Below are positions 16,731 to 47,545 of a stretch of DNA of 64,000 nucleotides, in pieces. Numbering within the stretch: the stretch's first letter is position 1; every line of letters begins with the position of its first letter. The stretch spans positions 77,748,001 through 77,812,000 of the forward strand of contig NC_086373.1 of assembly GCF_036588685.1 (NCBI RefSeq), read 5' to 3'. The DNA comes from Mytilus trossulus (Eukaryota). The translations under genes and the position numbers were made by a program. The notes under the pieces are model-generated. The model did not search any database. It was given only the letters and a program-made list of their open reading frames with translations, and was not told the DNA's origin.

Positions 16731-16790
16731 ATAGGGAATGGTTCAGTACTCACATTACTTGATTTATAAATAACAAACATGAGAACTTAC

Positions 16791-23864: not shown

Positions 23865-23975
23865 CTGAAATGTAAAAAAGTCAGATTAATTTCTTGCAAA
23901 ATCAAAATCAAATAGAAAGACAATGGTTGTAGTAAACTATACCTACTGCTTTGATTGTCAACAACGACATGACAA

Positions 23976-24520: not shown

Positions 24521-24639
24521 CTGGCATGGCTTTTATAAGAAAAAAAATTATGCACATATTGGCAAATATTATAAACAATAATTGTAGACATCATATTGTT
24601 TTTAAAAAGCTTAGCACTTAGCCCACAAGTCAACAATTT

Positions 24640-24990
24640 TGTACTGTTATACCACTGTCCCAGGTTAGGGGATGGATGGGATCCCACTTACATGTCTATG
24701 TATGTATGTGCCTGTCCCAAGTCAGGAGCCTGTTATTCAGTGGTTGTCGTTTGTTTATGTGTTACATATTTGTTTTTCGTTCATATTTTTGAAAATAAAT
24801 AAGGCAGATAGTTTTCTCATTAGAATTGTTTTACATTGTCATTTCCGGCCTTTTATAGTTGACTATGTGGTATGGGCTTTGCTCATTGTTGAAGGCCATA
24901 CAGTGACCTAAAGTTGTTAATTTCTGTGTCATTTTAGTTTATTGTAGAGAGTTGTCTCATTGGCATTCATACCACATCTTCTTTTTTATA
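24640..24990 (+). repeat. Abundant dispersed repeat ending GAGAGTTGTCTCATTGGCA.TCATACCACATCTTCTTTTT
   Basis: The same 3' segment occurs at 20475-20640, 42600-42755 and 48290, and in reverse at 16930-17020 and 36625-36770. Confidence 0.8.
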
Positions 24991-25331
24991 GTTTGTGTTT
25001 TTCAACAAGGCTAATCTAAAAATATGACTTCATATCAATGTGCAGACAGATGAATTACTGGTATAAGCCATAAACATTTACAGGTAACATTCTATGCTAA
25101 GTGCTCCAAGTTTACTTGATAATATACTTCTTGCCATTGCTTTTAACAGAATTATTGCAATTCAAAACATTGTACTGATAAACATTATTGAAAAGTCTAG
25201 TTCATTTATAACATTGTAACATTCAATTCACAAATAAATGGGTTGTATGATTCTACAATATTAAATAAGATTGGTTACAGATATGTGAAAAAGTATATAC
25301 ATTTACATGTAACAATTGTTTACAAACTCAC

Positions 25332-25453
25332 CTGTCTTTCATTAACTGATATAAGTTTTCTTTCATAAATTCGAACACAAAAAACAGTTGATCATTTTCT
25401 CGTATAACTTCTTTTAGTCGGACTATATTGGGATGGTTTAATTTCCTTAAAGA
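25332..25453 (-). CDS. MAK: MAK/ICK coding exon 3 (122 nt)
   Basis: [40 protein letters not shown](R); tttcag| ... |GTGAGT. Confidence 0.95.
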
Positions 25454-25920
25454 CTGAAATGAAAGAAAAATCAATTTGAAATGTTGTCAAATTTAACAAT
25501 TAAAATTTAAGAAATCTTCTTAAGCTTCAAATCCCTTCATTGCATCCTTTTTTCCAATAAATCTTGGATTTTTTCCTTATAAGTTATGTTTTAAGACATT
25601 TAAACTTCGGGTATTATTTTGAAGAGGCTCTTTAGTACTGAATCAATCTCCAGGACAAAATATATTGATAATTGTTTTCATTTTTTTTTGCAGTTAATTA
25701 TGTTTATGCTTCTAGATCTTAATCAGATAATCAGTTTTTTTTTTTATCTATTATAGTTTTCAGGAAAATATCCAAAAATGCAAAAACATGGGTTTGGCCA
25801 ATTCCTCCCAAATTATAGCACATATATATATAGATAGAAACTTAAAACAGCAAACATGTTCATAAAGATATGATTTAATGTTTTCCACCCAAGCTTTAAA
25901 TTTTCAGAAAAAATGACTCA

Positions 25921-26185
25921 TAGAATGTGTCCATAGTACACGGATGGCCCACTCGCACTATCATTTTCTATGTTCAGTGGACCGTACAATTTGGAAAAAA
26001 ATATTATTTGGCATTAAAATAAGAAAGATCATATCATAGGGAACATGTGTACTAAGTGTCAAGTTGTCTGGACTTCAACTTCATCAAAAACTACCTTGAA
26101 CAAAAACTTTAACCTGAAGCGGGACAGACGAATGCTCAGACCAGAAAACATAATGCCCCTCTTCTATCGTAGGTGGGGCATAAAA
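25921..26185 (-). mobile_element. Short HINE-type element
   Basis: GCCCAC (25947) is inverted against GTGGGG (26173); terminal hairpin ATGCCCC..GGGGCAT followed by AAAA; a GACAGACG microsatellite remnant is present. Confidence 0.5.
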
Positions 26186-27420
26186 TCCATAAACTGTTCA
26201 AGTCGAGATTCTACTGGTACAAATGTATTAGAGAATATGAATGTCTTAACTGGATGATTAACATGGATATATAAATATGTATAAATATACCTGTACATAT
26301 TTGCTCAAAATAATCATTGAGTGCAATAAAACACTATTTCTAAGGTAGATTTAAATACAAATATAGGTACATTTGTATATACTTTATTGAAGGTCATCCT
26401 AAACACAGATCAATAGATTTAAAGTCTAAGATCATGGGAATCAATATGATTATAAATATTAATCAAGAATGTGCTATATCAACAAGGGTAATAAATGAAT
26501 ACACTTTTAAAGACAAGAGGCTATAAGTACTGTATTCCAAAAATTCTTGTTTGTGTTCATAACAAAAATCAACAAAGCTTTTCTTGAAAATACTCAGAAA
26601 TCGAAAACAGAAAGCATACATACTGATATTCTGGATTATAATATGCATTTATGTTATCACATATATTTATTCCATCTCAAACTATGTCAAAATGAACCTA
26701 ATTGTAGTTGTTTGACTCCGGTTTCCTACCCTTTTAATTTTAAATTTGTGTGAACATGGTGAATGCAAACCATTATTGTTTTGTTGTGTCATGTGCAAAG
26801 GGTGCAATATAATATAAATGGACCAAGATGTGTGTAGGATAGATGGTCATCATAATGCATATAATTTTCAAAATCGGACCAAATTGTAAAGATTTTGATA
26901 CTATAAGAAACCATGATGCAACTATAAGCACTATTCATTCACTACTGTTTGGATCTCAAATACTTATTTTTTATGTGCATCTCTAATATTTAGTGCTCAT
27001 GTTGCATATAATTTTCATAAATATATTCACTGTTAAAACCTGTGGGATAAATTTAGTCTCAGTTAATACTTAGAAATCTAAATGAATATTTCCTTGTCTG
27101 TAATAGGTACAATGTATCTATTAATGATTTTTTTTACAGAAATATTATTGTTTATCTTTCTGCTTTCAGACCATTGTATTTCTGACTTCAAAATATATTT
27201 TTTTTAAAATACCTACAAATTGATGTTAATTTTCCTCTTGCTTTTAGACATTTGCTCAGACTACAGCTCTACAGAAATGAGTTGAGCCAGGCTAGTTTTT
27301 ACTTTTTACTTTCTGTTCTGCAAATGAACCCTCTGTTAACCTACTTCTTTACATGTTTACAGACAAGTATCTAAGGGTCAAACTTGTAAAAGGACAGAAG
27401 AAATTTTACAAAATACTAAC

Positions 27421-27475
27421 CTTAACTTCTCGCAGATTTAAACACTCGTCCCATGAGTAATATTTCTTCTTCATT
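27421..27475 (-). CDS. MAK: MAK/ICK coding exon 2 (55 nt)
   Basis: MKKKYYSWDECLNLREVK; tacag| ... |GTTAGT. Confidence 0.95.
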
Positions 27476-30400
27476 CTGTAAAAAGAGAAAGAAAAGTATG
27501 AGAAAAAACAATCAGTATAGTGTATTCAACCTGGATATTTTACTCACCTTCAGGAGGTAATTATGCTGTGTTTACCTATGCATGCTATGGGCCATATATA
27601 TATATATTATAAATTTTATTCAAAACACAAAATAAAAACTTACAAGCAAGCCAAAATCAATTACTAGTATTTAATTGATCTACATTTCAAATTTTTCAGT
27701 GGGTGTTAAACAAGACTATACACAGTAATGCCTACTCTGCTTTACTAAATGATGAATTTATGTTTTAAGTTATATAAAAAGATAAAGGTTTTGATACGTA
27801 CATGTACATATGTATGAATTTCAATAACAGCCGGGAAACAGACTAATGTAATAGAGGTCAATGTCAGATAGACCCTTCAAGACAGACATGTACAACTTAA
27901 AAATATCAAATTCACTTAAGATATATATTGTCTGAGAAAAAGATCTTATTACAAAACTTGAGAATGATCTGGAACTGTGAATGAGACAAATTCAGGCTAG
28001 ATGAACCCTGCTAGAAGAGCAAGTGGTTATCCTATTTCTAATTATCAATGAAAAAGTCATGAAAGTTGCTGAAACAAGAAAACAAGGTCAAGGATATTAG
28101 ATATATGCCAGACTGAAACAACTAAACATAAGGTATCTTTTATGCAAGGCATGAAGAATCCACGACTTTTACCCTCTGAAGTATAAGTCTTTATACAAAT
28201 AGTTTAAAACACAGTGCTTGTCTAGATCTATATTCACATACTGACGAGATTCCCCTCCCCCAAACTTGGTATAATAATTACATCATCAGTATCACATTGG
28301 AACTATAAACAGCTCAAGTTAAATGGCAGATTTATGAAAAGATTTTAAAATGAAGCTGGAAAATAACTCATTAATAGTTTAATCTAACGTTTTTTTGTAT
28401 ACTATATTTGTATGGTTTTAGTGGATCCTCCATGCATTTGTATATATACCATATGTGAACTGATAGGGGATTTCTGTTGTTGATTATATAGGGAATCACT
28501 GAAGCCTGACTATAGAGGCCACAGCCCCTTATAAAAACTTCTTGATCTGCCAATGTATAATGTGTATACATGTATATACAGCTGTGTACAATGTACAATG
28601 TATATACAAAAGATGATGTATTCATTGTATTCATGGATGCACACATTACATATTGAATTTCCTTGTGTTCTGAAATTTCTTCATTCATACATGTACTTAA
28701 TTATTCAGAATTTTTGAGTATCTGCTGACTGCAGCAAAATCGTTTTTCACATCTTATGTTTTTTTTCTGCCCCTCGGTATGTCAATAATAACATATTTGG
28801 CAGTATCTTTCATTTACCTTTTAGTAACCCCTTATCTGAAATACATATATAAAGAAGTCATGAGAACTATAGTCTACAGCTCCCATTTAAATCATGTGGC
28901 GACATTTACATGAAAGGAATTAAAATCAGGTGAAGACAATAAAACTTTTATATCTATCTTCTTGTAATTTACAATATTTTTTTTAAATTGGTTGAATTTG
29001 GAAGATTTCCAACAATTTATAAATGATGTATATACCTGTCAATGAGAATTTTAACAGGTGAATAAATCATACACATACCCTGCTGATTGCTATCAAAACA
29101 AATAACCATACTTGTCTTCAACAAATAATGTACTCACAATTCACAAGGACCCCAATTAAAATTCATAGGTGAATTTTAACATACACCCTAGCTTCATTTA
29201 AGTGATATAAAAACCAGGAAAAATAATCTCAATGCCTTAGTATTACCAATCTTAAGGTCATGCTTCAAACCAGGTGTTTATTCATTGAAACCAATTGAAT
29301 TTGTAGAGAACAGATCTAGAGTACAGATTTAAGAAATAATAAAACAGTTGTCCATTGTAGCTAGGTATAATGAAAAGTTGTGTCCTTGTAATCAACTAGA
29401 TAATTAGCTGATACACACTGATGGAAAGTTGGAAACTAGATGTTTAAAGATTTAAAAAATGCCATAGGAACTAAACGTCTATCCAGTTTGCTTAAACAAA
29501 TTTGTTTTAGTCTCTACTTCAAAAAGTGACTTTTTTATATCCTACAAGGAAGTGATCGAAACAGCTGATGGTACATTGTATAGTCAGCTTACAGGTACAC
29601 AGACAATTAGCACATGTTTTATTACTTATATATATATATATACAGAACATGTACATGTAACTAAACTTAAGTACTTATTTTTACAGCTATTACAAATATT
29701 TAAATAACTACTGAAAGGTTTGTTTTGGTAAGTTTCACCAGTGTGCACAATCCTGTTGTTTTGTAGGACCTAATCTTTTGCGCCCCATATGACTGTACCA
29801 TCTGCATGTTCTACCTTGATGATCTTATAATTTTTACAGCATGTTCACCAATGTTTGCCTTAAATAAGAGGTTACAAGCCTTAACTGCTATATACATTTG
29901 TATATCTATGTCAGGTGAACAGGTAATGCCTTTTAACCATGATGTTATTATCCTTTAAGCAATGGGTATATGATTAAAGGATTTTTTATGAAAGCATGCA
30001 TTCTTCATGGCATTTTATTGACCAGAAAAGTGACCATCTAATTTAACTATTTTAGTGTCGATAATCAGCTGCTAACACCTTGACTTTTATGTTGTCCACT
30101 CGAGAAAATGTGCACTCAATGTAAATGAAAGTTGAAAACTGATTTGACAACTTCATGGTAAACTAAGGTCTACAATGTACCTCCAAGTTCAAACCAAAAC
30201 TGTATCATGATACATTGTACTAGATTGACAAACAGACCATACCACATAATATTTTCTACAGTCTACTAATGAAAGCTGGTCATATTAATATATATTAACA
30301 TCACTTTTGCAGAACGCAATATCAATTGAAAAAAAATAATAATAAACAGTGGCATACAAATTGCAATCTTACAATGTTTAAACGTATTGCAGACTTGAAA

Positions 30401-30495
30401 AAAACTGTGTAAAAATAATGGAAAACATTAAAGTCTTTTTAAATACACAGAAATATAACATGTATAAGGATTGTGAGAAATCATACTCTACTTAC

Positions 30496-30596
30496 TTTTT
30501 AATAGCAACACTTTCTTGGTTTTCTATACTTTTAGCCAACAGAACACTTCCATAAGTCCCATCTCCTAACTGCTTGAATATCTGGTATCGATTCAT
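30496..30596 (-). CDS. MAK: MAK/ICK kinase coding exon 1 (101 coding nt)
   Basis: [33 protein letters not shown](K); donor AA|GTAAGT. A likely upstream acceptor tctatttcag| places the exon start at 30780. Confidence 0.95.
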
Positions 30597-31673
30597 TTTA
30601 TCTGGTTTTTTTTTTTATATTTTCACATGAAACAAGCTAATGATTTATGTACATACACTAAACAACGTTTTTGAGTTCAAAACACAGTGAAATATATACA
30701 AAAAATGTGAGCAAATCAATGGAGAGTGTTGCATGTCAACCAAAACAGGTCTTCGTCAAAGTTAGATGGTCACTAATACACTGAAATAGAGACATTAACT
30801 TTACAATGGTTAATTGACAGATTTCATTATGTTCTCATACATTTAATTTCTGTCTTTCAATATAAATTTGTACTTTGTGCTTCATGATGTCATTGCTGTT
30901 TAAAATAAATTCAGTAAAGCTTTTGCAACTGATGTGTTCAGTTTGTTCTTCAGTTGACATTGTGCTGTTTAAACATTGTGCCAAATTAGGGGAGTTTTAT
31001 CAGAACTGATATATAACCTGTTGTCTCATTAATGGTGCAGTCAGGTGTATCCCCGCACCTAAAACTTATGACTTCACTTTATTCAACAGACAAAACCAAT
31101 AATTGGATAAAGTTGTGTGAACACATGCTTAAAATCTTCTGTTTGTTTGGTTTCACCCTCAAGATTTTTTTGTAAAGTGTGTCCAAAATTAGGAAAACCC
31201 CTGTTCTGGGAGTTCCTCTAATGTTCGGTGATTTCTACATGCCTTCCAAAAATAGCTTATTTTGAATAAAGGAAAGATTTTATATCTGGCACAAAATATA
31301 GTTGAATTTGAACCAAACACACTGCCAAGGATGCAGAGCAAAAAGTATTTAATTTGATATAAATTTGACTTCAGTAAAACAAACTGTGATTTTTTTGTAA
31401 TAAAAATTGGCCAAATATTGTAAATCACAGGATTGCAGTACCAAATTTATTCTTATCTATCCCTTCGGAAGGCTAAAACAATTACAAGAACGATTATATT
31501 TGTGTTACTGTCATGACTTTGTTGATACAACGAAATTGAGCTAATGCGTGGTATTTCCATTCGCTATCCTAATTCAATGAACTTCTTCCTTCTTTTTCTT
31601 CCAGGTAAGGGAACCAAATTCAAATTTGTATGTATTAGGTCCCGCGAAAACTAAAGCAATGTTTGTTTTTATC

Positions 31674-33144
31674 TAATCCGAGATTACTCTGACCGTCTGA
31701 TGTCAAAGCTCGTCCTATATCAAAAAGTGGATATTTGCCTACCCAAAATAGATGCGCTGCTTCGTCTCTTCTGGAGCAGACTGAGGGCCTTGGAATTATA
31801 TAAATCGGGCTTCAATCTCTTCATTTATGTCAGTTTCACCTACCTGCCAACCCTTATTTTTCTATATTTAAACAGTTTTCACAGAGACCCATCAATTTCT
31901 GCATTTTGACTTTAACTTTCAAATGGACCTCAAGTTACGAGAGTTCGTGGCCTCGAGGCTCAAATATTCCTGTATAGGAGATCGATGTTTAACATTTAGA
32001 AGCAACCACGTTTTTTCACCTCCTTTACAGGAGATCTGTACATTTTGTAATTAGCATTTAGTCACTACCATGATAACAATCGGAAGCTCTTGGACATGCA
32101 GGTAACTTGCATCAAAAATGAACGAGGTGTGACATTAAGGTCATTTGCACTGTTCTCTTGGGTCACTACACGTGATCATCTTTGAAAATGAAAGGCAAAA
32201 TTCAGAAGTCGATTGGTCACTGTGAAAACTGTCTAATTATGAGAAAATAAAGGTTGGCAGGTCGGTGAAACTTACATAAATGAAGAGATGAATGAAAAAT
32301 TAAGAGATTGAAGGCCGATTTATGTAATTCCAAGGCCCTCAGTCGGCTCCAAAAGCATCTTCGCTAGCCAAGGGTTACGATCCACTCCCGCTCTCTTCAC
32401 CCTTGGCGGATTGAGCCAACATTTGTGATAACAATGTTGCGCCATCTATCGGAAGATAAAAACCACGCCAATTCCGAATACATTAGTCTTGACCAATAGT
32501 AGCACTTGAACTCTTCAGCTTGGAGGTAAAAACACGGTAGCGTCTAGATGCTACACACTTGGTAAAGCCGGAAATGAAAACATACGTCAACATTCATGCA
32601 TTTGTGCATGAAACATACACAGGAACTTCCATTTGTTGATTAAAAACATTCAAGTTTTCACTAAATATAGTCGTATGTTTAGGGATGTAAAGGCTTGTTG
32701 CACAAAAAACACGTGGCAATTGTTTACAAACACTTTCTACATTTACACGTGATTATGTTACAGGCGCATTTTGATTGGATGCAGCGAGTTTTGACTGCAA
32801 CCAATAAAAATCCTTACCTTGTGTCTCCGAAATTTTATCTCAATCCGCCAAGGGTGAAGAGAGCGGGAGTGGATCGTAACCCTTGGCTAGCGAAGATGCT
32901 CCAAAAGCGACGAAGCAGCGAATCTATTTTTAGTGGGCAAATATCCACTTTTTGATATGGGACGATCTCTGACGTCCCACAGCCCCAGCTTGTCTGGCAA
33001 AACAGCCGTCAGAGTACAAAGTACAAGTATAAGTACAAAGGAGAAACTATATTAGTGATAATAATTTTACAAGAGAGGATAATTCACAAGAGAGATTACT
33101 CTGTCATCACGACAAAGATTGAAGATCAAAGTAATCTCGGCCTA
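31674..33144. mobile_element. Long-TIR non-autonomous DNA transposon (outer), near-perfect 9-bp TSD
   Basis: Ends TAATCCGAGATTACT / AGTAATCTCGGCCTA. Flanks GTTTTTATC (31665-31673) and GTTTTTATT (33145-33153). The ~190-bp left arm (31680-31862) is inverted against 32243-32355 plus 32899-32975. Confidence 0.75.
32356..32898. mobile_element. 543-bp MITE with perfect 60-bp TIRs and 9-bp TSD (Mutator-like), nested in the outer element
   Basis: 32356-32415 is the exact reverse complement of 32839-32898. CTCCAAAAG is duplicated at 32347-32355 and 32899-32907. Confidence 0.9.
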
Positions 33145-33471
33145 GTTTTTATTGTGGTTGTTACATTTCTGTGTAGTCATTTTGATAAATGACTTTACAG
33201 CAAGGTTGTAAGTGGCCTGTACGTATTGTATATTGCGTTTACATCAAATTTATACAGCGAATGTTTATCAATCCTCGATATTTTTGGTTTCGAAGACCAT
33301 GTTTCTGTGTTTGCAAGGCTTGTAAAGATGTATCTATAAATGGTGAAAATAGAACAATCATACGCTCCAATTATTAGTGTATTTGTGTATGCCTTTAAGG
33401 TAGACTAGATTGGCACGATTAATAATAGGAGAAATGAGTGAAATTTGATCTATTTATCGGTCAATCGTGGA

Positions 33472-33568
33472 ACTCACCTCCGCCATGACAGTTGTTGCTA
33501 TTTGTTCAATTATTTGGTCACGTGATAAGTGTAGCAACCATGAAAATTTTGTCGAGAGTTATCTCCCT
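33472..33568 (-). promoter_or_regulatory. Candidate MAK promoter and upstream leader exon with donor GAG|GTGAGT at 33478/33477
   Basis: Strong donor site, E-box GGTCACGTGA (33516-33525), two RFX-like half sites GTTGCTA (33494-33500) and TAGCAAC (33532-33538), and GAGTTATCTCCCT (33556-33568). It would splice to the acceptor at 30780. Inferred without transcript data. Confidence 0.45.
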
Positions 33569-33749
33569 CCAAAGTTATTCAAGTATTAGCTTTATAAATT
33601 AAAAAAAACCTTGTCTGAAAAACCGTTCTCCCTACTGTATACAAATCGTTGGATTATAGTGAAATAAGACAATCAATCATTGTAAAATCGGAACCTATCT
33701 ATAAAGATCTATATAATTAACTTTCAAATTATACATCGAACAAGGGGCT

Positions 33750-34136
33750 CTCACTGTGGGGGATCCAGACTGAATTTGGATAAAAGACTTAGATGATGTC
33801 GATAAGCCTTAAAGGGATGGGACCCATTTACTCTTGTTCTAAGAGGGAACCCGCTCCAGTCATGCTTCAGTAATTCCCTTATATAATCAACAAAACAATT
33901 GCCAGTCATGCCGGTTTTATAGCCATCCAAGGTCGTTAACAACTTTCATCGTGGTCAATCATGCCAGCACGTGGAAGGTGCACTCGACTCGGGCCAATCT
34001 TCATTGACATGGATTGTCAGTTTTCCTACCGAAATCAATGGTCCCTCCCGGGCACTCCAATTTTCTCAAAACCCTACCACCTAGAAATAGCACAATAGTG
34101 CTGTAAGTGGCGTTCAACCCAAAGTAATCCATCAAT
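33750..34136 (+). repeat. Decayed SINE-like element
   Basis: GC-richer block ending AGTGGCGTTCAACCCAAAGTAATCCATCAAT, resembling the (AATC)n-tailed SINE ends seen in molluscs. No intact A/B boxes were recognised. Confidence 0.4.
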
Positions 34137-34190
34137 GATTCGATCGGAATCATATTTTTGAAAGCTGTCATGTTAAATTATTATGTCCTT

Positions 34191-34765
34191 TTAAGGTTTA
34201 TGTACCCTTCTGTGGCAATTTTTGTACGAACTATTCAAATTTCAATTGTATCAAAACTACAGATATAATGAATAATAGAGATAGGCCATTTTGTACATAT
34301 TCCAAGGGGAAACTTGATTCAAAGCATTACTTTTTACTGTTCCATTGCATTTAATAGAAAAAGAGGACTTTGTGGCAAATAAATCAAGATTTTTATAGAA
34401 AATCCACAGCCTTTATCCTTGTACTCTCATATTTGGCAATTTGATGACTAGTAGAAATAGGATTATTGCATGCAGTGCTAGCATTGATTTCCTCAAAACA
34501 ACTTTATAAATGTAGTTGTTGTTTAAAAAATCTCTGTATTAAAGGCTGTGGATTTTCTATAAAAATCTTGATTTATTTGCCACAAAGTTCTCTTTTTCTA
34601 TCAAATACAATGAAAGAGTAAAAAAGTACGCTTTGCATCAAGTTTCCCCTTGGAATATGTACTAAATGGCCTATCTCTATTATTCATTATATCTGTAGTT
34701 TTGATACAATTGAGGTTTGAAAAATTCATACAAAAATGGCTACAGAACCTTAATTTAAACCTTAA
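34191..34765. mobile_element. TTAA-flanked foldback MITE with ~220-bp arms (Kolobok-like)
   Basis: TTAA-GGTTTA...TAAACC-TTAA. Arm 34195-34413 is inverted against 34541-34761 at high identity, with a ~125-bp spacer. TTAA TSD with purine termini fits Kolobok. Confidence 0.8.
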
Positions 34766-34785
34766 CAGTAAGTAACTATATATAC

Positions 34786-35640
34786 TAGTGTTGTCAAATC
34801 GCACAGGTTTGTCAAACCAGTTACTCTGATAATCTTTCGACCAATTAACGGCTCATCAACTGGTTAACCGGTGGTAAATTTGGCATTTACAGGTCTTATT
34901 TTATACAGTACTCTACAAATGAACAGTTTTTCAAACGACGAATTGAAGTTTATCCTTAAGAATTATAAGGTTTTACTTTCAGCATTACTTGTGAGATTTT
35001 ACTTTTGATAACTCAATACTAGCATACCTTCATTCAGAACGAGAAGATGAGAATCTTCTTGATCTCGGCGAATTGACAAAGTGTAAAACCGGAAAAGAGT
35101 TCCTTTTTTTCTCTGGTGTCTGTGCGTAAATTATGTGTAGTATATCAATCTGAGTAGATAAAGCATGCTACTCCGTAATGGATGAGTGTATTTCAGGGTT
35201 GCCCCGAGTTAATAGACAAGTTGTCTTCGTGCAAATTATTTTTTTCAATGTAAGTGAGGTCTTTTCTCTGTGTGTTGCATTTTAGTGTTGTGTTTCTGTT
35301 GTATCGCTGTTCTCCTCTTATACTTGATGCATTGCCCTCAGATTTAGTTTGTAACCAGGATTTTTTGTTACTTCAATCGATTTAGGAATTTCGAACAGCG
35401 GTATACTACCGTTGCCTTTATTAACAAGACAGTAAACCATGGTAATCATTATACTGGACAATTGTTTCATCTAATTTAAGTAGCACTTTTAAAATTCAAC
35501 ACAATGTATTGTTGCGATTTCAATACAAATTTATTAAATCCATTAAAATTGTTAAAAGGTCAGGTTAACCGGTAAGTTTTTTTGGTATTCGATATTCGGT
35601 CATTCAGACGGTTAACCCCGGTTAATCGTTGACAACACTA
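34786..35640. mobile_element. hAT-like non-autonomous element
   Basis: TIR TAGTGTTGTCAA / TTGACAACACTA and subterminal GGTTAACC repeats at both ends. The TSD is degraded. It contains a dispersed repeat at 35265-35422. Confidence 0.65.
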
Positions 35641-35749
35641 ATATAAGTAAATATATATACACAAATATTACAAAAAGTAGCATTATTTGAATGAGCTCTT
35701 TAAAAAACTTACATACAGTACTGTTAGTGGAACTACTGCAAACACCATC

Positions 35750-36390
35750 AGTGACCTCAGCCAAGCCATCCATCATCATGTTTTTCGACCTTTCACTGCT
35801 GCTTATCCCATATTATATAAACTTGTACAACTGTTAACCAGTCACTCCTACTGCAGAAAACAATCCCCACACTGACTGTGCAGTATAGACTCTTTAGCAA
35901 ACATCAAGAGGGAAGTTCCATGTGTGACATCCTCTATATCTCCAATCTACTAACAGCCCAGCATACTGTTCCTGTACCCTTTTTCTTTCATTGGCTTTGC
36001 TACACCTCTCCTCCTAGGGAACTTTAAGCTCTATAATTTCTACTTTTACTGCCATAAAACACATGTCATGTCTTAAGGGCTAGTTGGTACAATGTTGGGA
36101 AATTGCAGTTTCTTTCCTTGATCTACTTCTAACTGCCAATCTCTTGCCTGAGTTATCATTCCTGGCGTGTTTTGTTTACTTTTTCTCTGACATAGTTCTC
36201 CATCATTCTCAAACTGGATCTTGATAGGTTTCTTTATTATGTGGTTTGCTTCTTTTCTTTGTTTTTCTACCACTTAAGTAAGTTCCCAGAGTTCTTGATT
36301 GTGTCGCCATGTATATCTCCTCTGTGTTAGAGCGATATTGCATCATGAAAGAACATGTAGAGTTTCTCTGTTTCCGCACTGGTGTAGTTG
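35750..36390 (-). pseudogene. 3' remnant of an RLE-type non-LTR retrotransposon (HERO/NeSL/R2 group): zinc knuckle and restriction-like endonuclease
   Basis: Minus-strand translation with stops: CGNRETLHVLS*CNIALTQRRYTWRHNQ...DWQLEVD..LQFP.IVPT-LRHD...IELKVP*EE..ANERK...FPLDV, matching the C-x-H-x-C, RH, (R)PD and E-x-K motifs of RLE LINEs. Confidence 0.7.
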
Positions 36391-36854
36391 GAATTGAGTA
36401 CTGTATATTGCCATATTTCTGATAATGTAAGGGATCGATGTTCTAATTCCTAATTTGACCTAGTTGCTCGTCTGTTTTCCACTTTTTTATATTTATATTA
36501 AACTAGACTTTGTCTCTCTGGGGTGTTAGCATTTTTCAGGAGTGTTTTGTTTACAGTCAACTTTAATCAGCAAATAAAAAAAATAATATCACGCGCAATA
36601 TAGAAACACGAACATATTTGAAGTTGTGGTGTTAGTGCCAATGAGACAACTCTCCATCCAATTAACATTTTATAAAAGCAAACCATCATAGGTCAAAGTA
36701 CGGTTTTCAACACGGAGCCTTGGCTCAAACCGAACAGCAAGCTATAAAAGGGATCCAAAAATTACTAGTGTTTAATCCAAAATTTGCTACATACGGAAAT
36801 TCCTCCACCAAGTCAGGAATATAGTTATCAAAAGTACCATGATTATAATTTAGT

Positions 36855-36900
36855 ACGCCATACGCGCGTTTCGTCTTCGTAAGACTCATCAGTGACGCTC
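36855..36900 (-). ncRNA. Minimal type I hammerhead ribozyme (intact core)
   Basis: GAGCGUCA-CUGAUGA-GUCU UACGA AGAC-GAAAC-GCGC-GUA^UGGCGU: conserved CUGANGA and GAAA, 4-bp stem II, palindromic loop III, NUH triplet GUA. Cleavage at 36861/36860. Confidence 0.85.
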
Positions 36901-37213
36901 ATATCAAAATATTTATAAAGCCAAACAAGTACAAAGTTGAAGACCATTATGATCCAAAATTCCAAAAAAAGTTGTGCCAAATACGGCTAAGGTAATCTAT
37001 GCCTGGGATACGAAAATCCTGAGTTTTTCGAAAAGTTAAAAGTTTTGTCAACAGGAAATTTATAAAAAAAATGACCACATTATTGATATTCATGCCAACA
37101 CCGAAGTATTGACTACTGGGCTGGTGAAACCCTCGGGGAAGAAACGTCCACCGGCAGTGGCATCGACCCAGTGATGTAAATAGTTATCAAAGGTACCAGG
37201 ATTGTTATTTAGT

Positions 37214-37259
37214 ACGCCATACGCTCGTTTCGTCTTCGTAAGACTCATCAGTGACGCCC
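37214..37259 (-). ncRNA. Minimal type I hammerhead ribozyme (intact core)
   Basis: GGGCGUCA-CUGAUGA-GUCU UACGA AGAC-GAAAC-GAGC-GUA^UGGCGU. Cleavage at 37220/37219. Confidence 0.8.
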
Positions 37260-38519
37260 ATATAAAAATATTTACAAAGCCAAACAAGTAAAAAGGTGAA
37301 GAGCATTATGATTTGAAATTCCAAAAAAAATGACAGTTGTTATTTATTTGTTTGAACTTTTGATTTTGTCATTTGATTAGGGACTTTTCGTATTGAATTT
37401 TTTTCGGAGTTAATCTTTTTTGTGGTTTTATTTCCCACGCCCAGTAGATTAAGGACAAGGAACCATCCTTTAATGCCAGATCTCTTACCAAGGATACATA
37501 TAGCCAATATGAGTTCATATATCGATGGCAAATACCCTTCTGCAATACAATCCGGTTAAAAGGGGCAATTAATATGGGTCCAAACCAAAAAACCTCATAC
37601 GATTAAAATTTATTATGGGAACGTACTTAGATGTTCGCAAGGAGAATTTCAACAGCTTGAATAATCTCAGATGAGATCCAGTAAGTATATCTAACACATT
37701 TATCTCTTTCATAACACAAGAAGTTAAAATGGGTTACAACCAAAATAAATTGCATGATATAGGTCTTCCGAAAGACAATATGATAGACAGGACAGTTTCT
37801 ACGCTTTGTGAAGATGGATTGTAAAAATTCTAAAAGTGATTACTGTAAACGAAATTGAAAGGTCTTAGGAAAGGTTGTTGTTCATATTCAATTAACCTTA
37901 TGTAAATGGATCATTTTGTATACTATCGGTCAACGATATCAACCCCACAGCCACGAATTTACTAATCCTGTAATTGAACCGAATAGGAGATCGATATATT
38001 TCTTTAATATTTTAATTTTCTATTTTCACAAGAGTTTGTACGTTAATTAAATATTTAGGTACCGCACTAAATCTGCTTTTAAGTATTGTTCTTATTGAAG
38101 TTTATATACATTTGAATAGAAATTCCGTGTCATTTTACAATGTGTACCCGGGTGCGGGATTTTCGCGAAGTGTTAAAGAACTTATGGTGGCCTTCGGCTG
38201 TTTTCTGCTCTTTCATCGGGTTATTGTCTCTTTGACACATTCACCATTTCCATTCTCAACTTTATAAGTATTCAGTAACTGAAAGTTAACGAATTTTCCT
38301 TTCTGAGTTATCTCCCCTACACTAATCATGATACATTTGGATATCAATCTTAATGTTTTACAGCAAATAAATAGACTTGACAATGGTAGAATGTTGCAGT
38401 TGTGAACAAGAAGTAGAACAAGAACACCTGTTGTGCTATTGGTATTATTATTTTAGAGAAAGCATTTATATAAATTTTCTATAAAAACATGAACGATAAA
38501 ATATCCTGTTGGACTATAT

Positions 38520-38700
38520 ATATTCATCAAAGATACAAGGCTTAAATTTTTTAGTAAACCAGACGAGCGTTTCGTCTACAGAAGACTCACCAGTAGGACT
38601 ATAATCAAACTGCAGTTGTAAGATCAAATCAAATATGAAGTTATAAGCATTTAAAGCAGAAAATACGAAAAGCTGTGAGGCATTACATGGCTGGGATAAA
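38520..38700 (-). mobile_element. Decayed retrozyme fragment with mutated hammerhead (38557-38600)
   Basis: CUGGUGA replaces CUGAUGA; stem II and GAAAC..GUC are retained; flanks align to the 36821 element. Confidence 0.65.
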
Positions 38701-39213
38701 CTAACCTATGTGTTTATCATCGGATTTTGTCTTATGCTTAGTTCGTTTCTACTTGTGTGTTACATTTTAGAGTTGTGTCGTTGTTCTACTCTTATATTTA
38801 TTGAGTTTCCCTCAGTTTAAGTTTGTAACCCGGATTTGTTTTTTTTCTATCGATTTATGAGTTTCGAACAGCGCTATACTACTGTTGCCTTTATTTGAAT
38901 AAAACAACATTTTATTTGATTGATATCGTTTGAAATTTTCAAAGTTAATGGGCTTTCCCTTTGTTGATTTTCTCTTGCAGTTCGGTATTTGTACTTTTTG
39001 ATAAACATAGAAAATGAACGATCAACGATTTTCAATGTCAACACATAAGTTCTGACTACTGGAGCATGTGATAACCTCGGGGACTGTAGTCTGTCAGCAT
39101 CTACATGGTGGTTGTAAACATTTCAAAGGATAATAAGCCTATTTGACAAAACGTTTGGGAATTTTGGTCCTCTAACTTCGTATTTTATTGGGCTTTTTAA
39201 CATTTTTGTATTC

Positions 39214-39259
39214 GAGCGTCACTGATGAGTCTTTTGTAGACGAAACGCGCGTCTGACGT
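39214..39259 (+). ncRNA. Minimal type I hammerhead ribozyme (intact core)
   Basis: GAGCGUCA-CUGAUGA-GUCU UUUGU AGAC-GAAAC-GCGC-GUC^UGACGU. Helix I is GCGUCA/UGACGU; cleavage after 39253. Confidence 0.85.
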
Positions 39260-41590
39260 AATTTCAAAGTTGAATCCTGGTATCTATGATGAGTTTATTA
39301 GCACGACATACGCGCGTCTCGAATACATAAGGGTCATCAACGATAGTTGAATCAAAATAATTGGAAGGCCAAATGGAATTTGAAGTTGAAGTGCATTAAA
39401 AGAAAAACAAACAAAAATGTCAGAAAATTAGTGTAATATACTCTTTGGCATGTATATGAACATACAATGCAATACATTTTCTTATGTTTGACACTGAAAT
39501 AACAGGTATGCACAAAATTAGCCCTAGAGCATGCCTAAGAGAAAATAAATATTAATTTTATAAAAGCACATTTATATTTATGATACTTCAATATTACTGT
39601 ATAGTGTACATAAACAGTCCTCTAGCCTAATTGTGCTTGCATAACTTGGTGGATTTCCGTTATATTTGTCAGTTGTCTAATCAATGGTGAATACTGTTTT
39701 ATAATAAACATACAATATGGAAGGTGGTTTGCTGTATGACACCTATAATTGCAGCACATATATGTTTACTTATAATATCAAACGCTGGTAACCATCCATA
39801 TTTTTTTTATTTATAAAAGCTAATTATTAAAAGTTAATGTCAAGCTCATGAACTTTGTCATCAAGTCAGTTAAGGACAAACTTTGTTTAATAAAAAGAAA
39901 ATATTGTAACACACAATGAACCGATATAAAAGTAGTGAAATTTATAATTATTTCAAACTAAAAACTTGATTTTCTACAGAAATGTATCTATCTGTAGATA
40001 TTTTTGATTGAGAAGTTCCATACGTTATATGAGAATCAACACTCATGATCTCAAAAAAGATATAAATAAAGGCAACAGTAGTATAACGCTATTCAAAATT
40101 CATAAATCGATAGAGAAAAAAACAAATCCGAAATACAAACTAAAACTGAGGGAAACGTATCAAATGAAAGAGAACTACGACACAACAGAGACGCATCACC
40201 GAAATGTAACACACACAGAAACGAACTAAAGTATAAAATGCGTATATAGAAATAAATGATCTCTAGGTTTAGTAAGAAATGTACTCGCAATTTAGTTGAT
40301 GAATCGCTGTGGTTTAGCATACAATGCAGATATACTTTTTTTTTAAAAGAGATCAACACTACAATGTTTTTATTGCTGTTGTTTTTTTATTTGGTCTTGT
40401 TGTTGTCTCTTTGACACATTCTCCATTTCCATTCTCAATTTTATTAAAGTTTTTCAAATATCCGGAATGAGGCAAAACTTGTTTGTTTATTAACTAATCG
40501 TCGGTCTAAAGTATTTGGGGAATTATTTTATTAAATGTTTAAACGAAATATCAAGGTTTTTCCTGAAAAAACAATAAACAGGATTTTTATAAGATGATGA
40601 AATATATTTAGGTTTATAATTATATATGATTGATTAATACATTTCAACGTAATGTATTGTTTTGTGTGCGTAAATGTTATTGCTGTTAGCAAGGCACCCT
40701 AATTGGAGAATAAATATGTCTTATTCTTATTCATGCCTTGGGCACGAACAACCCTTTGTGTTTCACATAGAAACTAATGAAACTAGTGGTACCATCATGG
40801 TCAAAATATCTACCACCAGTTTCATCGACCCCGTGGAGGTAAAAACTACAAAATACCTGACTCATAGTTTGGTTCGCCAAAATGCAATTTTGATACAAGG
40901 GAGAAATAAAAACTAAAACATGAAACGTGAGAATACATTTTCGGTAGTTCAAAAGTGGACTAAGAAGTTTGCAATTGAAGATATTCGTAAAATTCTCTGA
41001 CTACAGCTACTAGTATTGGTAGTATCATGCTGGTGAATCTTATCAATAACAAACAAGTTTAAAGGACGCTGATGTTGGCGTAAAGGGATGATGCTCATTA
41101 ACATGCTACATCTGTAAACAAAAGTGTATCATGCTGTATAGAGAAACAATCATTGTTTTTGATTTTTCTTGTTTAACCTTTGACACATTGAGCAATCGAT
41201 TGGATAAAAAAAACTGCATTGCCAACATCGCGTGTTACTCATTGCTTAGTTTTCTATGTTGTGTTTTGCATACTGTTTTGTATCACGACCATTTTTCGTT
41301 ATTTTGCCATGACATTGTCAATTTTTTTTCGACGTCCATATAATTCTTTACTTAAACACACATACATATTCTTATATCTATAAATTTGAAATTGGGATAT
41401 TCTCACAATATTTTCCTATTAAAATTTCCCATGACAATGAACAGTTTTGGAAAGCAATATGTTGATATGATAAGGACTGCGTGCAACACTTTAAAAATTT
41501 ATGTTCGGATAATAAATCTTGCACATGTATATGATTTGGTTTCATTATTTTTTTAAAAATTAATAGTCTGCAAAGATTAATTTACATTGG

Positions 41591-42073
41591 TTGAAGTCAT
41601 ATGAAATCTCAAATTAACAAAAGTATGCATATATGTTTTTTTATAACAAAATAGATAGTTTTCATTATTAAATCTATGTAAATACTTTTTCTGAAGAAAA
41701 TAATTTAATTTGTCCACACTAAGAAGAAGTTTCCTTTTTTATTGCTTGCTTCCGGAAGCAAGCAATTCGCCGACATATTTTCCGTATGCAAAGTGACCCT
41801 AGCGTGAATCTGCTCATAAAAATCTGGTGATCTTAAACTTAAACTTAAACTAAACTCGGTAATCTTTGGAGTCAAAACACGGCATTTAATGAGCTGCCAT
41901 ATTTGTTAAATCATCACAGGATGAAAGAAAAAAAATGAAGAGTATACGATGTATTTGCGTAAAAAATGAAAACATTGTGCACGGAAGACTAAGTCTATGA
42001 TATATACATGCATTGGTTCAAGAATTGAATAAACATGATTTTTTCTCCAGTCACTCGTTTCATATGACTTTAA
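41591..42073. mobile_element. Kolobok-like MITE
   Basis: TTGA-AGTCATATGAAA ... TTTCATATGACT-TTAA (AG termini, TTAA-like TSD). Confidence 0.65.
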
Positions 42074-42183
42074 AATACCAGTTTAACAAGCTTCTTATGC
42101 CAAAAAATAAAATAAAATGAAAACTACACGTTATAAAAGTAAATTTCATGCGTCCGAAGCGCTTTTAAAGATTTACCTTCACC

Positions 42184-42545
42184 AATAGACCACTTTCGAG
42201 TTCATCCGTCACCGAAAACACATCTTCAATTATGCGCGCCATTATGATCGCCTGTATCCGTGCACTATTGACATTTATCAAGCTTCTTATCGTCATTGCG
42301 TAGGATAAACTAGAAATAATGTTTTTTTTTTGTAAGTACTAAATCACAATACCCTAATGACAGCAGTGCTGATTGTCAATTATGAGAATTTGATTTGCCG
42401 AATAATTCGTGCAATATAGTTATATAGTTTTCCAACCACTCGCTTAACATTAGAATCGAAATGACGATACCCCTAAACGCACGAATGATGTTCACTGAAA
42501 CCAGAGTTTTTGACGGAAATGCATCGAACTCGAAAGTTGTCTATT
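42184..42545. mobile_element. MITE with 20-bp TIRs
   Basis: AATAGACCACTTTCGAGTTC / GAACTCGAAAGTTGTCTATT (1 mismatch), plus internal TCCGTCA/TGACGGA. Confidence 0.75.
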
Positions 42546-43429
42546 CTCTCGATTAATAATCAACTCTTTCTTGCTTTTTATATAGATTATACCGTTAGTT
42601 TTCCTGTTTGAATTGTTCAACACAAGTCATTTTGCGACCTCTTTTAGCTTCATACTGTTTTGTGTGAAGCAAGGCTACGTGTGAAAAGCCGTACTTATAA
42701 CGGTTTATTTTCTACAAATTGTGACTTGGATGGAGAGTTGTCTCATTGGCACTCTTACTGGTTATTGATGTATAATACACTATAGATAGTATTTCCTTAA
42801 TCATTAGAAGAGCTTTTTATTGCCCTAGCTTTTACACACAGAAAAATCAAGCAGCGATTTTTTCTGCTATGTTTTACAGTTTAAATAACCGGCAGACCAT
42901 GATTATACAATGCAGTGCACCCAGACTCATTTACTTCGGTACATACAATTATGTGTCAAGGATAAGAAATATAATATTATTCCAATACGCAATTCAATTG
43001 CAACTGCTAACCGGAAGAAAAGGAGATTGTTGTCAATTTTAAAAATGAGGTCAAATATCTAGATTTCAGCATTTTGCAATTGATCATTGTCGTTTCAGTT
43101 TGATGTAAAACAAACACAATCGTACCTTATATGTATTACGAGCCATTATTTGTCTCCTAAAATTCACAAACCGAATTTAGTATAGCAAAGTGATATCGTA
43201 TGAACTCTAGAAAATTAAATGAAACACGATGACCATGAATATCTGGAAATTCTAAACAGACGATATATAATGCTACGTCAGAAAATATATTTTTGATTAA
43301 AAAAAGTGGAATGCCAGCATGAGCTTTGTTTTTTTAACCCCTTTATATTTGAAAATAACGGTAGACTAAATTATATGATAGGACTTGACGATTTCAAATA
43401 TTTTTCATTAAGTATCGGAAATTTTGTAT

Positions 43430-43720
43430 TAAAGAGGCAAAATGGTGATTTGTATCATAATCTAGATTTTTTTTGGCTGAGAAATGTGAAAACAATAGGA
43501 AACTTGAAATTAACCAGTTTGTCAGAGATTCTTGTTTGAAGTCGCCCATGTTTGTCAATATCGAGGATAAGATCAAGATATGAAGAAGACCTGGTCGTTT
43601 CCTTTATATCAAGTACATGGATATATCTGATGTAAGCACTCATTGAAATGTTGGTAATGTAGTGACAGAACATCAGTAATATATCTGAAAATGCTATTAA
43701 AGAACTTTGCATAATTTGTT
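43430..43720 (-). pseudogene. Penelope-like RT fragment
   Basis: LDIKETTRSSSYLDLILDIDKHGRLQTRISDK.VNFKFPIV parallels LEIKDTTDTRRTASYLDL..TKIYDKQDDFNF of the 53925-55680 remnant. Confidence 0.65.
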
Positions 43721-44199
43721 TTCATTTTGTCTGTCAAAATATTCTTATGCTTTATGCTTTCTATGAAATATGAATTATGTTATTCTTTAAAATGTAAATT
43801 TTCTGTGGAAAGGACTTAAAACATTAAATCATCAGAATGGTGTAATGAATATTTGTTCGTACCAATGGAACATGAGGTATATCTAAAGATTCCCTTGAAG
43901 ATATTTGGAAAAAAAAAATTTGAGTTAAATGTTTTGCTGTAATGGTATTTCCAAATCCATTTTTTAGTTAGATTTGGATGTATTTATTGCGGTAAGCTTG
44001 AAAGCAAAAACAGACAAAACATAGTAAGTATCATGAATATTCTTATAGTTCAATTCTGACAAATAAAACTTTTCTAAATATCAGCTAGCTGATTTCAAAG
44101 TGTTATTTTCCCAAAAGATTTCACTTATATCATGAGACACATTTGTTTGATTGTCTACATCATCAGATAGATGGTCCTTTATCTTATCGAATTGTTAAC

Positions 44200-44420
44200 C
44201 AATGTACCAGGTTTACAATCTAATACGCCAGACGCGCGTTTCATATACATGTACATAAAAATCATCAGCTACGCTCAGATCAAAATAATTTAAAAAAAAA
44301 AGAAAAGCCAAACAAGTACAAAGCTAAAGATCATTAATGACCCAATATTCCAAAATATTGAGCCAAATACGGCTTATAAGGTTATCTATGCCTGGGATAA
44401 GAAAATCCTTAGTATTTCAA
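44200..44420 (-). mobile_element. Retrozyme fragment with hammerhead whose stem II is disrupted (44224-44276)
   Basis: GAGCGUAG-CUGAUGA-(AT-rich insert)-GAAAC GCGC GUC UGGCGUA; flanks align with 36840-37030. Confidence 0.7.
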
Positions 44421-45107
44421 TTTATTAATTTAGTTTTTTTTTATTCCGATCTTTTATAGTTTACTATTTACAAGTTTGTAATCGGGCTCTGATGGTATAC
44501 ATAATTTTTAATTTCAATTTGTCTGTTTATTACCTGTTTCTCTATATGCACTATTTTGCTTTTCTTAGGTAATATCTTCTTATGAGTGTATTTGGTTCAG
44601 ATATTCTTCAAATAAACGCTATGATGAGTTTATTTAGCAATCAAAAGGTAGAAACGCTTGAGCTTGGATTTTACATATGGGAACGCCATTTCAGTTTATT
44701 GCTGGTAACAACAGCTTCTTATTATATAAGTTTTCTTATTGTACATCTTTTTGAATATAAACCACCATGCAGACACAGATAAAAAACTAAATCTACAGTT
44801 GAAAATTCGTTCCGGCCTTCCCTTCTCACTCATTATAGAACTCATACCATTCCTAATGTGGGTTGACTAAATTTGTGTCTTTCTGATTGATTTTCTAGTT
44901 ATGAAATCGGTAAACTAACTTAATGTTACTTTAATAAACCCTTGCAACACCACTCATGTTGTGAAACATTATAGCCTGTCCAGAAAAATATTGCATTGTC
45001 TTATAATCTTAAGCACTATAAAAACAAATAACTATTTCAACAAAGAAAAAAACAAAATGCCATATAGACAACTTCGAATTTGTTTGGCTTTCTATTTTGT
45101 TTTATAT

Positions 45108-45155
45108 GAGCGTCACTGATGAGGCTTATATAGACGAAACACGCGTCTGGCGTTC
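45108..45155 (+). ncRNA. Type I hammerhead ribozyme (core intact, stem II mismatch)
   Basis: GAGCGUCA-CUGAUGA-GGCU UAUAU AGAC-GAAAC-ACGC-GUC^UGGCGUUC; 8-bp helix I, G.A mismatch in stem II. Confidence 0.65.
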
Positions 45156-46319
45156 TAAATTATACTACTGGTACCTAGACAAAGTATATATATATATAAA
45201 TAAATAAACGACAGGAATACAAAATATGAACATAGGACAATCACACGATTGTTTGATGTTTTGATACCGAGTCACGTATATTACCGACAATGACTCTACA
45301 CTTTGTGTCAATGTGTTTAACGAGTAAATCTCATTTTAATGGATCATTGGTCAGACTTTGTGGTAAGTAATAGCTTTTTGATATCAAATACTTACTATTC
45401 TGACATCATCAATGTAATAAACGAGATGTTACAACGTACTTACACTTGACTTGTGTACCGCATAATGTTGGTAGAAAACATCATTGTATATATTTCGGTC
45501 AATTGTATAATTAGGCTAAGACTATGTTTATTTAAGGATGAAAAACCCAACGCCAGACTAAAGTATAGATGAATTAAAGACATTAGATTTGCTACAGGTA
45601 TCATCTTATAGTAGTCTAAACATATTAAATGCTATAAATACCGCGAATAACAGGACATCAAAACGGTAGATTTGGTCTCAGTTTTACATTTAATCGAAAT
45701 CGGTTACCTAATTCGTTCAAGCCAATGATAATGTCTTCTATAAATGACATATAAGTTGATATATTTTTTACTTTCAACATAGTGTAACTTTGTGGTATAG
45801 CATTTTATCACAATGATATAAGATAAAGCATTTTCTGGAGGAAAAAAATAAGATGATATATATTTTTGAAAACAGTTTTTCATAATATTGAAATATGTAA
45901 TCGTTATTTAAGCATTATTTCTTGTAACAACATGATTTAAAAGAAACTTGTGTGTGGATTTTCATATCCCAGTATTACACACAGTATTTCGTAATATAGA
46001 AATATGTAATCTTTGATACAAGCATTATTTCTTGTAACAACATGCTTTAAAAGAAACTGTTGTTTTTTTTGTGGTTTTAAATAAAAGAATATTTACCTAA
46101 TGCTATATTCTATGATTTAATATTTTACCCGTTTATAAAAGCTTGATTTGAATGTGAAACTTGAAATTTTTAAAGGATAACCTTTTTTTCTCTATTTCTT
46201 TCAGATCCACATGCATTCCATTGTTTATAATGTTGTCCTAGTTAGCTTAATTATGAAAGGACCAGTGTGTGAGGACTAGTGTAAGCGTTTGACATCATAT
46301 TGTGTTTATTGCAAAGCTT

Positions 46320-46602
46320 TCACGAATGTGACCTACCGAATAAGAATATTTACCGGATTTGTTATCACATAAGCAACACGACGGGTGCCACATGTGGAGC
46401 AGGATCTGCTTACCCTTCCGGAGCACCTGAGATCACCCCTAGTATTTGGTGGGGTTCGTGTTGTTTATTCTTTAGTTTTCTATGTTGTGGCATGTCTTCT
46501 ATTGTTTGTCTGTTTGTCTTTTTCATTTTAAGCTATGGCGTTGTCAGTTGATTTTAGATTGATGAGTTTGACTGTCTCTTTGGTATCTTTCAACCCTCTT
46601 TT
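46320..46602 (+). repeat. Dispersed SINE-like repeat (possibly a retroelement 3' end)
   Basis: GC-richer core ACGGGTGCCACATGTGGAGCAGGATCTGCTTACCCTTCCGGAGCACCTGAGATCACCCC; related copies at 12840-13150 (-) and 13295-13380 (+). Confidence 0.8.
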
Positions 46603-47203
46603 AAGAAATCCTATCTTCCTGAAACGAATGAGCGAATTTGAATCAAACTTTAAACTGCAGTATTTATTGCAGTTATGTCATATGACCATTTCGTTAACGC
46701 CTTTCCTAACATGAAGGATAGAAGTAAATGGCTTTATCTGAAACAACAATAATGGGACAATCATTATCAAACTTTTATGAGATGAAACATGTGATGATAC
46801 TTTTTAATATAACTTTTTGACACTATCAACTTTGAAACAAAATTTTAATTCATGAAATTACATGAAGAATCTATGGCTGCCAAATTGGTTGAAATACCAA
46901 GATTGCTGTGCATCGCAGTGCAAAGGTATAAGTACGATTCATTTTCCAACGTACCCTTATTCTTTAGAGGAAGTCGAAATTCCCCGCCTTATTCTCATCA
47001 GATTTATCTTACAAAATCTACAAAGTGATATTAAAAATGAGACATTTTCCACTTGACAGTTCGAAAATAAACTCATCATAGATACGAGGATTCAGCTCGT
47101 TGATGTTGTGTTTTTAAGTTTCAAATAATTTGGCCCCATCCCTACTGAAGAGAATTCAATTGTCAAAATGCATATCTTTTGCAATAAAAAATAATACCTT
47201 TAG

Positions 47204-47319
47204 TATTGGGCCGGTTAAGGCCATTTCGCGTTTTCGACTTCGCGTTTTCGAGTTTTCGGCCTATATAATATAAAGGGCGAAAACGCGAAAACGCGAAATG
47301 GCCTTAACCGACCACCTTA
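47204..47319. mobile_element. ~115-bp palindromic MITE
   Basis: CGGTTAAGGCCATTTCGCGTTTTCG / CGAAAACGCGAAATGGCCTTAACCG perfect 25-bp inverted repeat; TA at both outer ends. Confidence 0.75.
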
Positions 47320-47374
47320 CCTCAGTGTCATACATGCCACTGCGTTGCAATTAAAATCCCAGTCAAAGATTATA

Positions 47375-47545
47375 TTAGCCGTATTTTGCACAATTTTTTT
47401 GAATTTTGGTCATCAATGCTCTTCAACTTTTTACTTGTTTGGCTTTCTAACTATTTTGATCTGATCGTCTCTGGTGAGTCTTATGTAGACAAAACGCGCG
47501 TCTGGCTTACCAAATGATATATCTCGTATCTTTGATAACTATATT
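47375..47545 (+). mobile_element. Retrozyme fragment with inactivated hammerhead (47461-47506)
   Basis: CTGGTGA...GAC-AAAAC GCGC GTC TGGC (two core substitutions). Ends TTTGATAACTAT, like the 36821 element. Confidence 0.7.

Follow-up and report, generated by a model that had tools for sequence, protein, structure and literature searches.

A paired hammerhead locus of Mytilus trossulus as a probable aged, dispersed copy of a non-LTR retrozyme

The two minus-strand hammerhead ribozymes near 37 kb of the analyzed window (a stretch of 64,000 nucleotides of the Mytilus trossulus genome) most likely belong to an aged, dispersed copy of a Mytilus non-LTR retrozyme that is probably near silent, a reading to which we assign a probability of about three in four. 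The family is expressed and its RNA is cut at the predicted site in one of two RNA runs; the transcribed RNA is that of the family, with GUC and the common loop II, and not specifically that of the locus copy. Circles, and for the locus copy its silence, its age, and the route by which it was copied, are inferred, and the course of events may be put as follows. In the family, by the account published for Mytilus galloprovincialis and partly borne out here, tandem units are transcribed, each type I hammerhead cuts after N17, an RtcB-type ligase of the host closes the monomer of ~355 nt into a circle, and reverse transcription by a borrowed enzyme returns the circle, or a multimer, to the genome. 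At this locus, copying would have started ~40 nt past the cut, crossed the junction, and stopped after 1.42 units, and the copy would have entered an AT step of another repeat. The GUA triplet and loop II UACGA, found in both ends, would have come from the template or from later local conversion, with drift afterwards.

The first-pass annotation had placed a pair of type I hammerheads, each with a complete core, on the minus strand, and both were found at the stated positions (Table 1). CUGAUGA lies at 37251 in hammerhead A and at 36892 in hammerhead B on the minus strand, and each ribozyme has GAAA, a stem I paired at 6 of 6 positions, a stem II of GUCU/AGAC (4 of 4 pairs) closing the loop UACGA, and a stem III of 2 bp (A-U, C-G) under a tetraloop. 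The last letter of the GUA triplet is at 37220 in A and at 36861 in B, and the reported spacing of 359 nt between the cuts (37219 to 36861) is exact. GUA is a permitted cleavage triplet under the NUH rule as given in PMC3884650. A check with the Rfam model Hammerhead_1, which had been recommended, matched both B (26.8 bits, E 0.027) and A (22.3 bits, E 0.79), but both scores fell under the gathering score of 34; the best score in the window was 33.3 bits, for the copy at 39216. The pair is nevertheless not a product of chance, because the window contains 14 family members (detected with a profile made from the window copies, one of them a short, weak match) and a pattern scan found six further loci (L001 to L006) in metagenome contigs. 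Pattern scans of viral contigs and prokaryote genome contigs gave no family matches.

Table 1. Coordinates of the hammerhead pair, its unit, and the split host repeat
Feature	Positions	Strand	Remarks
Hammerhead A, type I	37214..37257	-	Cut 37220/37219; loop III GAGC; Rfam and motif inspection
Hammerhead B, type I	36855..36898	-	Cut 36861/36860; loop III GCGC, the family state
Predicted monomer	36861..37219	-	359 nt, 38.7% GC; cut to cut
Spacer, unit part present once at the locus	36971..37178	-	Aligns to both L003 spacers; decayed copies at 63460-63654 and 39027-39084
Whole insertion	36820..37329	-	510 bp, 1.42 units; from the split host repeat and anchored extension against the natural unit
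Host repeat, 5' half	37330..37440	-	Unrelated dispersed repeat; copies near 51494 and 59300 without the insertion
Host repeat, 3' half	36790..36819	-	Same split repeat

Minimal type I hammerheads with a very short stem III, as in Penelope-like elements, had been invoked for comparison; a 2-bp stem with a tetraloop is instead the more stable, invertebrate-type helix III of PMC7229834, which is distinct from the minimal Penelope-like form that has no helix III. The differing loops III had also been offered as a natural test of cleavage as dimers. The loops do differ, but the test is weak, because GAGC is private to A (present in none of 7 outgroup copies) and because a published mussel ribozyme cleaved from one cloned repeat, at ~0.1 per min (PMC7229834). 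Computed energies of the loop III duplexes were -13.3 kcal/mol for GCGC/GCGC, -7.6 kcal/mol for A/B, and -5.4 kcal/mol for A/A. In 101-nt pieces, the active fold cost 7.6 kcal/mol above the minimum in A, 5.4 kcal/mol in B, and 7.4 kcal/mol in an intact copy from L003; nearest-neighbour folding cannot rank the copies, since the active fold was favoured in no copy tested. Over 12 copies, 97.2% of helix cells were paired and there were 0 compensatory changes, the variation being too small for a test of the structure. A transcript of the locus would probably cut, if slowly, since the two cores have kept their integrity.

The 359 nt between the cuts form a genuine tandem unit, as they match the 355-nt head-to-tail array of the metagenome contig L003. 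This contig is a pure array of three units with two scored cuts 355 nt apart, and its alignment to window positions 36821-37327 has 86% identity across 509 bp, spacer included. The tandem structure of L003 was shown by BLAST and alignment; Tandem Repeats Finder missed this contig. A chance join of two short copies round an unrelated repeat, considered as the origin of the 359-nt spacing, was rejected on the strength of the L003 array. The L003 alignment, the sense-biased family RNA, and the decayed window copies show the spacer to be part of the family unit and not a foreign insert. Over 360 aligned positions, the monomer and the 355-nt L003 unit show 36 substitutions and 6 gap columns, a divergence that is usual for the family, as adjacent L003 units differ comparably (32 substitutions in 301). 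Two frames (71-78 aa) spanning the unit had no Pfam match. A head-to-tail unit of low GC, within the 150-450 bp expected of the class, with neither a coding frame nor an LTR and with one type I ribozyme, fits a metazoan non-LTR retrozyme, and the first-pass annotation was right in proposing a tandem unit of this type, of a class already known in mussels. The circular monomer folded with 60% of its bases paired and a z of +0.56 against 60 shuffles (-0.65 for the L003 unit), and this folding, no better than that of shuffles, may count against the aged-retrozyme reading.

Copies of the host repeat near 51494 and 59300 join both flanks directly and thereby mark the ends of the insertion. The insertion begins, 5'-truncated, 108 nt ahead of the first cut, and its 3' end lies 40 nt beyond the second. 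No target-site duplication of >4 bp was found against the empty-site copies, with at most AT shared. The ~150-bp direct repeats described earlier are present as the two ends of the insertion, but their actual length is 151 bp and 15 of the 151 sites are unlike, with 1 difference in the 44-nt ribozymes and 14 in the remaining 107 nt. Compared with seven outgroup copies, three letters, one at N17 and two in loop II, occur only in A and B, which implies a common template or later conversion. Private changes number 11 in A (loop III included) and 2-3 in B (binomial p 0.02-0.06); this lopsidedness is a second point against the aged-retrozyme reading, and a mixed multimer template fits it better than one circle followed by even drift. 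We infer that the insertion is an aged copy.

Of the 11 window copies that were motif-scored, 7 had GUC, 3 had GUA, and 1 had GGC, and in 3 of them, namely A, B, and the one with its cut at 39253, the motif was fully intact. The earlier contrast between GUA in both ribozymes and GUC elsewhere is correct for the pair but does not extend to a decayed copy cut at 39309, which is also GUA. All 8 motif-scored copies in the L001-L006 loci had GUC and none had GUA. With GUA in 0 of these 8 outside copies and the alleles rare in family RNA, GUA/UACGA looks like a local variant, not a spreading one, and not like the distinct variant that had been suggested. Two subfamilies are visible in the 3' flanks of the family copies. 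At 39162-39399, two family copies lie tail to tail in opposite orientation, and the plus-strand copy (cut at 39253) is intact with GUC and is the one with the best Rfam score in the window. Decayed spacer-bearing stretches at 63460-63760 (-) and 39027-39084 (-) are older, longer copies. In L005, a marine metagenome contig, a copy 92% identical to window positions 37042-36821 occupies the terminal positions 1-221; the other frames of this contig are bacterial in look, possibly through chimeric assembly. Beside the family copy in L001, a 426-aa open frame (598-1875) resembles the COR region of a Roco protein.

Reads from 4 of the 24 listed runs were aligned at 85% likeness, and six RNA runs (0.09-0.11 of locus words) were left out. 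A total of 7103 of 8,710,588 records matched in the stranded RNA run X21 and 4224 of 12,728,340 in the RNA run X24, which puts family RNA at 0.03-0.08% of reads with the flanking host repeat counted in. By the rule for stranded libraries, under which a first mate on the plus strand represents minus-strand RNA, the ratio of plus to minus first mates over the spacer in X21 was 5.6:1, that is, family RNA in the sense of the ribozyme, and the flanking host repeat had the opposite bias (237:368). Furthermore, 120 X21 molecules ended exactly at 37219 (depth 572), the predicted 5' end after cutting. A further 542 X21 reads spanned the junction at 37220, for which circles, multimers, or uncut RNA are all possible sources. 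In X24, strand bias was absent (0.96) and there was no pile-up at 37219, a third point against the aged-retrozyme reading.

The first-pass annotation had gone further and proposed the locus as a candidate active source. On this reading, a transcript from read-through or from an internal promoter would be cut by both GUA hammerheads and give a 359-nt variant circle, which is unlikely, with a small but real chance of being correct. In its favour, the cores, stem I, and stem II are intact, as in only one other of the scored window copies, the triplet obeys the NUH rule (PMC3884650), the cost of the active fold is no worse than that of the intact L003 copy, and the region is not CpG-depleted. In addition, reads without GUC at site 36861 amounted to 47 of 1649 in X21 and 63 of 1187 in X24, or up to 3-5%, the letter not being resolved. 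The spacer alleles, however, made up at most 0.6-0.8% of family reads (7 of 1169 at 37153 in X21; 3 of 365 at 37128 in X24), only 20 of 7103 reads in X21 and 8 of 4224 in X24 were at least 99% like the locus, and the junction-side flank (37298-37349) had no read pile, with a depth of 2-19. Two intact cores would be expected with a chance of ~14% at such divergence, the pair had been chosen for its intactness, and no sister copies were found, GUA being absent from all 8 outside copies. A search for junction reads with the private SNPs of the copy, as had been recommended, gave family RNA ending at 37219 in X21 but at most a trace of the copy's own SNPs, in animals that are uncertain carriers. 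None of the 14 listed DNA runs, nor any of 20 holders, had half of the 53 words of the locus (best 0.45), and the low allele share is not proof of silence, because the sequenced animals may lack the insertion. The aged, near-silent copy remains our preferred reading; its ageing is supported by the divergence of the two ends and by the low share of locus alleles in RNA and also in the DNA contigs, where non-majority letters at 36861 and 36879 made up 2.3-6.6% of depth.

The dispersed copies of the family have a shared 3' end. When 21 copies were extended against the natural unit, 17 had their 3' end 26-54 nt beyond the cut (at 40-45 nt in 8 cases); of the other four, three continue into the spacer and one is interrupted by an inverted copy. 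Several of the shorter 3' ends come from copies of the second subfamily, from which the reference unit diverges. The 5' starts ranged from -23 to -198, with three at contig edges. In each of the runs X21, X24, and X1, 309-380 reads or contigs left the family at 36821 and continued into dissimilar flanks, with a flank agreement of 0.39-0.47, and among the 15 listed of 520 DNA joints, 6 met positions 37176-37179. A fixed 3' end beyond the cut implies that the junction was joined in the template, be it a circle or a multimer left uncut. Such an end is also reminiscent of a Penelope-like element (PLE) style of insertion. We tentatively suggest, at somewhat less than even odds, that Penelope-like machinery, perhaps that of Naiads without hammerheads, starts reverse transcription at a fixed point ~40 nt past the ligated junction and acts at TA-rich targets without duplicating them; the 1.42-mer would be an over-unit footprint and the short copies aborted products. 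In the portions of the literature that were covered, the copying of animal retrozymes into DNA is left hypothetical, with PLEs only as candidate helpers, and a search of titles and the starts of abstracts found no report of a fixed 3' end of retrozyme copies.

These features also bear on the possibility that an autonomous PLE left the hammerheads behind as pseudo-LTR remnants and that the 359-nt spacing reflects a partial 3'-end tandem, not a circle-forming unit. The palindromic loop III, the fixed 3' ends, the 5' truncation, the inverted pair at 39162-39399, and the TA-rich targets would agree with such remnants, and a decayed PLE reverse transcriptase adjoins one copy. This frame, at 53939-55457 (+), carries stops and frameshifts, and its homologues have ~1000 aa with a C-terminal reverse transcriptase and, in several, GIY-YIG, which is a Naiad-like layout. 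The 5'-truncated retrozyme copy at 55228-55307, however, breaks the PLE frame between homologue residues 949 and 950; because it interrupts the frame, this copy is an insertion and not a PLE terminus, and its candidacy as a pseudo-LTR of the neighbouring PLE was rejected. Moreover, none of 12 PLE query proteins matched the surroundings of 36-38 kb or any of L001-L006, L003 consists purely of 355-nt units in array, and sense RNA covers the whole unit and ends at the cut. We consider a PLE remnant quite improbable and retain the retrozyme reading. Smaller PLE pieces were seen at 43476-43737 (-), 51934-52107 (-), and 13213-13290 (-), and a PDB sequence search with one PLE piece gave 0 matches.

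A neighbouring gene encodes a dyf-5/MAK-like serine/threonine kinase at 16790-30596 (-), which a 590-aa Mytilus protein recovered in 13 tblastn pieces; one of its exons shares 91% identity with a dyf-5-like protein of Mytilus californianus, in keeping with a Mytilus host. Its ATG is at 30596, and the insertion lies 6.2 kb upstream on the same strand. The CpG observed/expected ratio rises from 0.30 within the kinase (16790-30596) to 0.86 at 31500-50000, with a sharp step at ~31.5 kb. Gene-body methylation occurs in bivalves, and from this step the locus therefore seems to lie outside the kinase gene body, the edge of which would be at ~31.5 kb. That the host retained the pair for terminating or processing a transcript upstream of the kinase is the least credible of the explanations and has only a very slight chance of being true. 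The shared strand and the distance of the ATG would suit it, as would the near identity of the two ribozymes against the greater divergence of the remaining insertion ends; against it, 0 of 14 DNA runs had half of the locus words, with no sign of conservation among the sampled animals, the gene-body edge falls near 31.5 kb, and the conservation of the cores is affected by the pair having been picked as intact.

Among 59 frames at 31.6-62.4 kb, Pfam gave 1 match, below the cut-off, at 61.1 kb (24 kb off). A non-LTR retrotransposon remnant was found at 6843-8850 (+), with RVT_1 at E 1e-33 in a 277-aa frame. Closer to the locus, short CpG-poor frames at 36076-36442 (-) had no Pfam match, and an Atlas search of 36076-36273 returned unnamed clusters only, eukaryote-like at 0.95; we take these frames to resemble the C-terminal part of a non-LTR retrotransposon. 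In addition, a near-perfect GC-rich hairpin lies at 47209-47313, where a MIR7504 match is spurious, and the window includes a 21-bp array that is AT-rich and palindromic, an inverted repeat of 208 bp (91%), and ~160-166-bp satellite-like arrays (11170-11970; 34208-34747; 59588-60250; 1495-2654).

As a single locus, the insertion matters little, since it is one of many copies and self-cleavage and circular RNA have already been published for mussels. A by-product of its analysis is read-level support that family RNA ends fall at the predicted cut, and the shared 3' end allows the question of which retrotransposon moves animal retrozymes to be tested with nothing but genome data.

The family fits the published mussel retrozyme (MN642551-MN642576) in genus, size, and motif type, on which its probable identity with it is based. 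Mytilus galloprovincialis is described as having ~5000 type I hammerheads in two similar families with repeats of 350-390 bp (PMC7229834, Cervera and de la Pena 2020), both of which lack most of the loop 1-2 contact bases, and 14 copies in 64 kb, three of them fully intact, would imply far more copies than this, which weighs against the aged-retrozyme reading. The same source reports abundant mussel retrozyme circles and ligation of the monomer Mg353 by RtcB, calls retrozyme monomers "highly self-paired", and treats a target-site duplication as optional. As set out there, Mg353 and the present family share the genus, a type I motif without evident loop 1-2 contacts, two subfamilies, a unit (here 355-359 nt) within 350-390 bp, a GC content of <45%, and abundant sense RNA; the locus differs in being a dispersed 1.42-mer without a target-site duplication and with GUA and UACGA, which are rare in family RNA and DNA. 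Satellite retrozymes of the axolotl and newt (HHR_Amex2 and Rtz_353, as presented in PMC7229834) also have a ~350-nt tandem unit and a 2-bp stem III with a tetraloop, but they keep the loop 1-2 contacts, need dimers for efficient cutting, and differ in phylum and sequence. The PLE pseudo-LTR hammerheads described in PMC4209133 and PMC6765202 are likewise type I, with a palindromic loop III and mostly dispersed single copies; in contrast to them, the locus has the 6-bp stem I and 4-bp stem II of canonical metazoan type I ribozymes, and its stem III is 2 bp long; it lacks an extra base ahead of stem II as well as a reverse transcriptase-endonuclease frame between its ribozymes. Naiad PLEs, abundant in Mytilus according to PMC8557442, differ from the family in being autonomous and, in that account, in having no canonical hammerheads, and are for it only a candidate helper, yet they share with it 5' truncation, partial tandems, an adjacent inverted copy, a preference for TA, and a tail of 30-40 bp.
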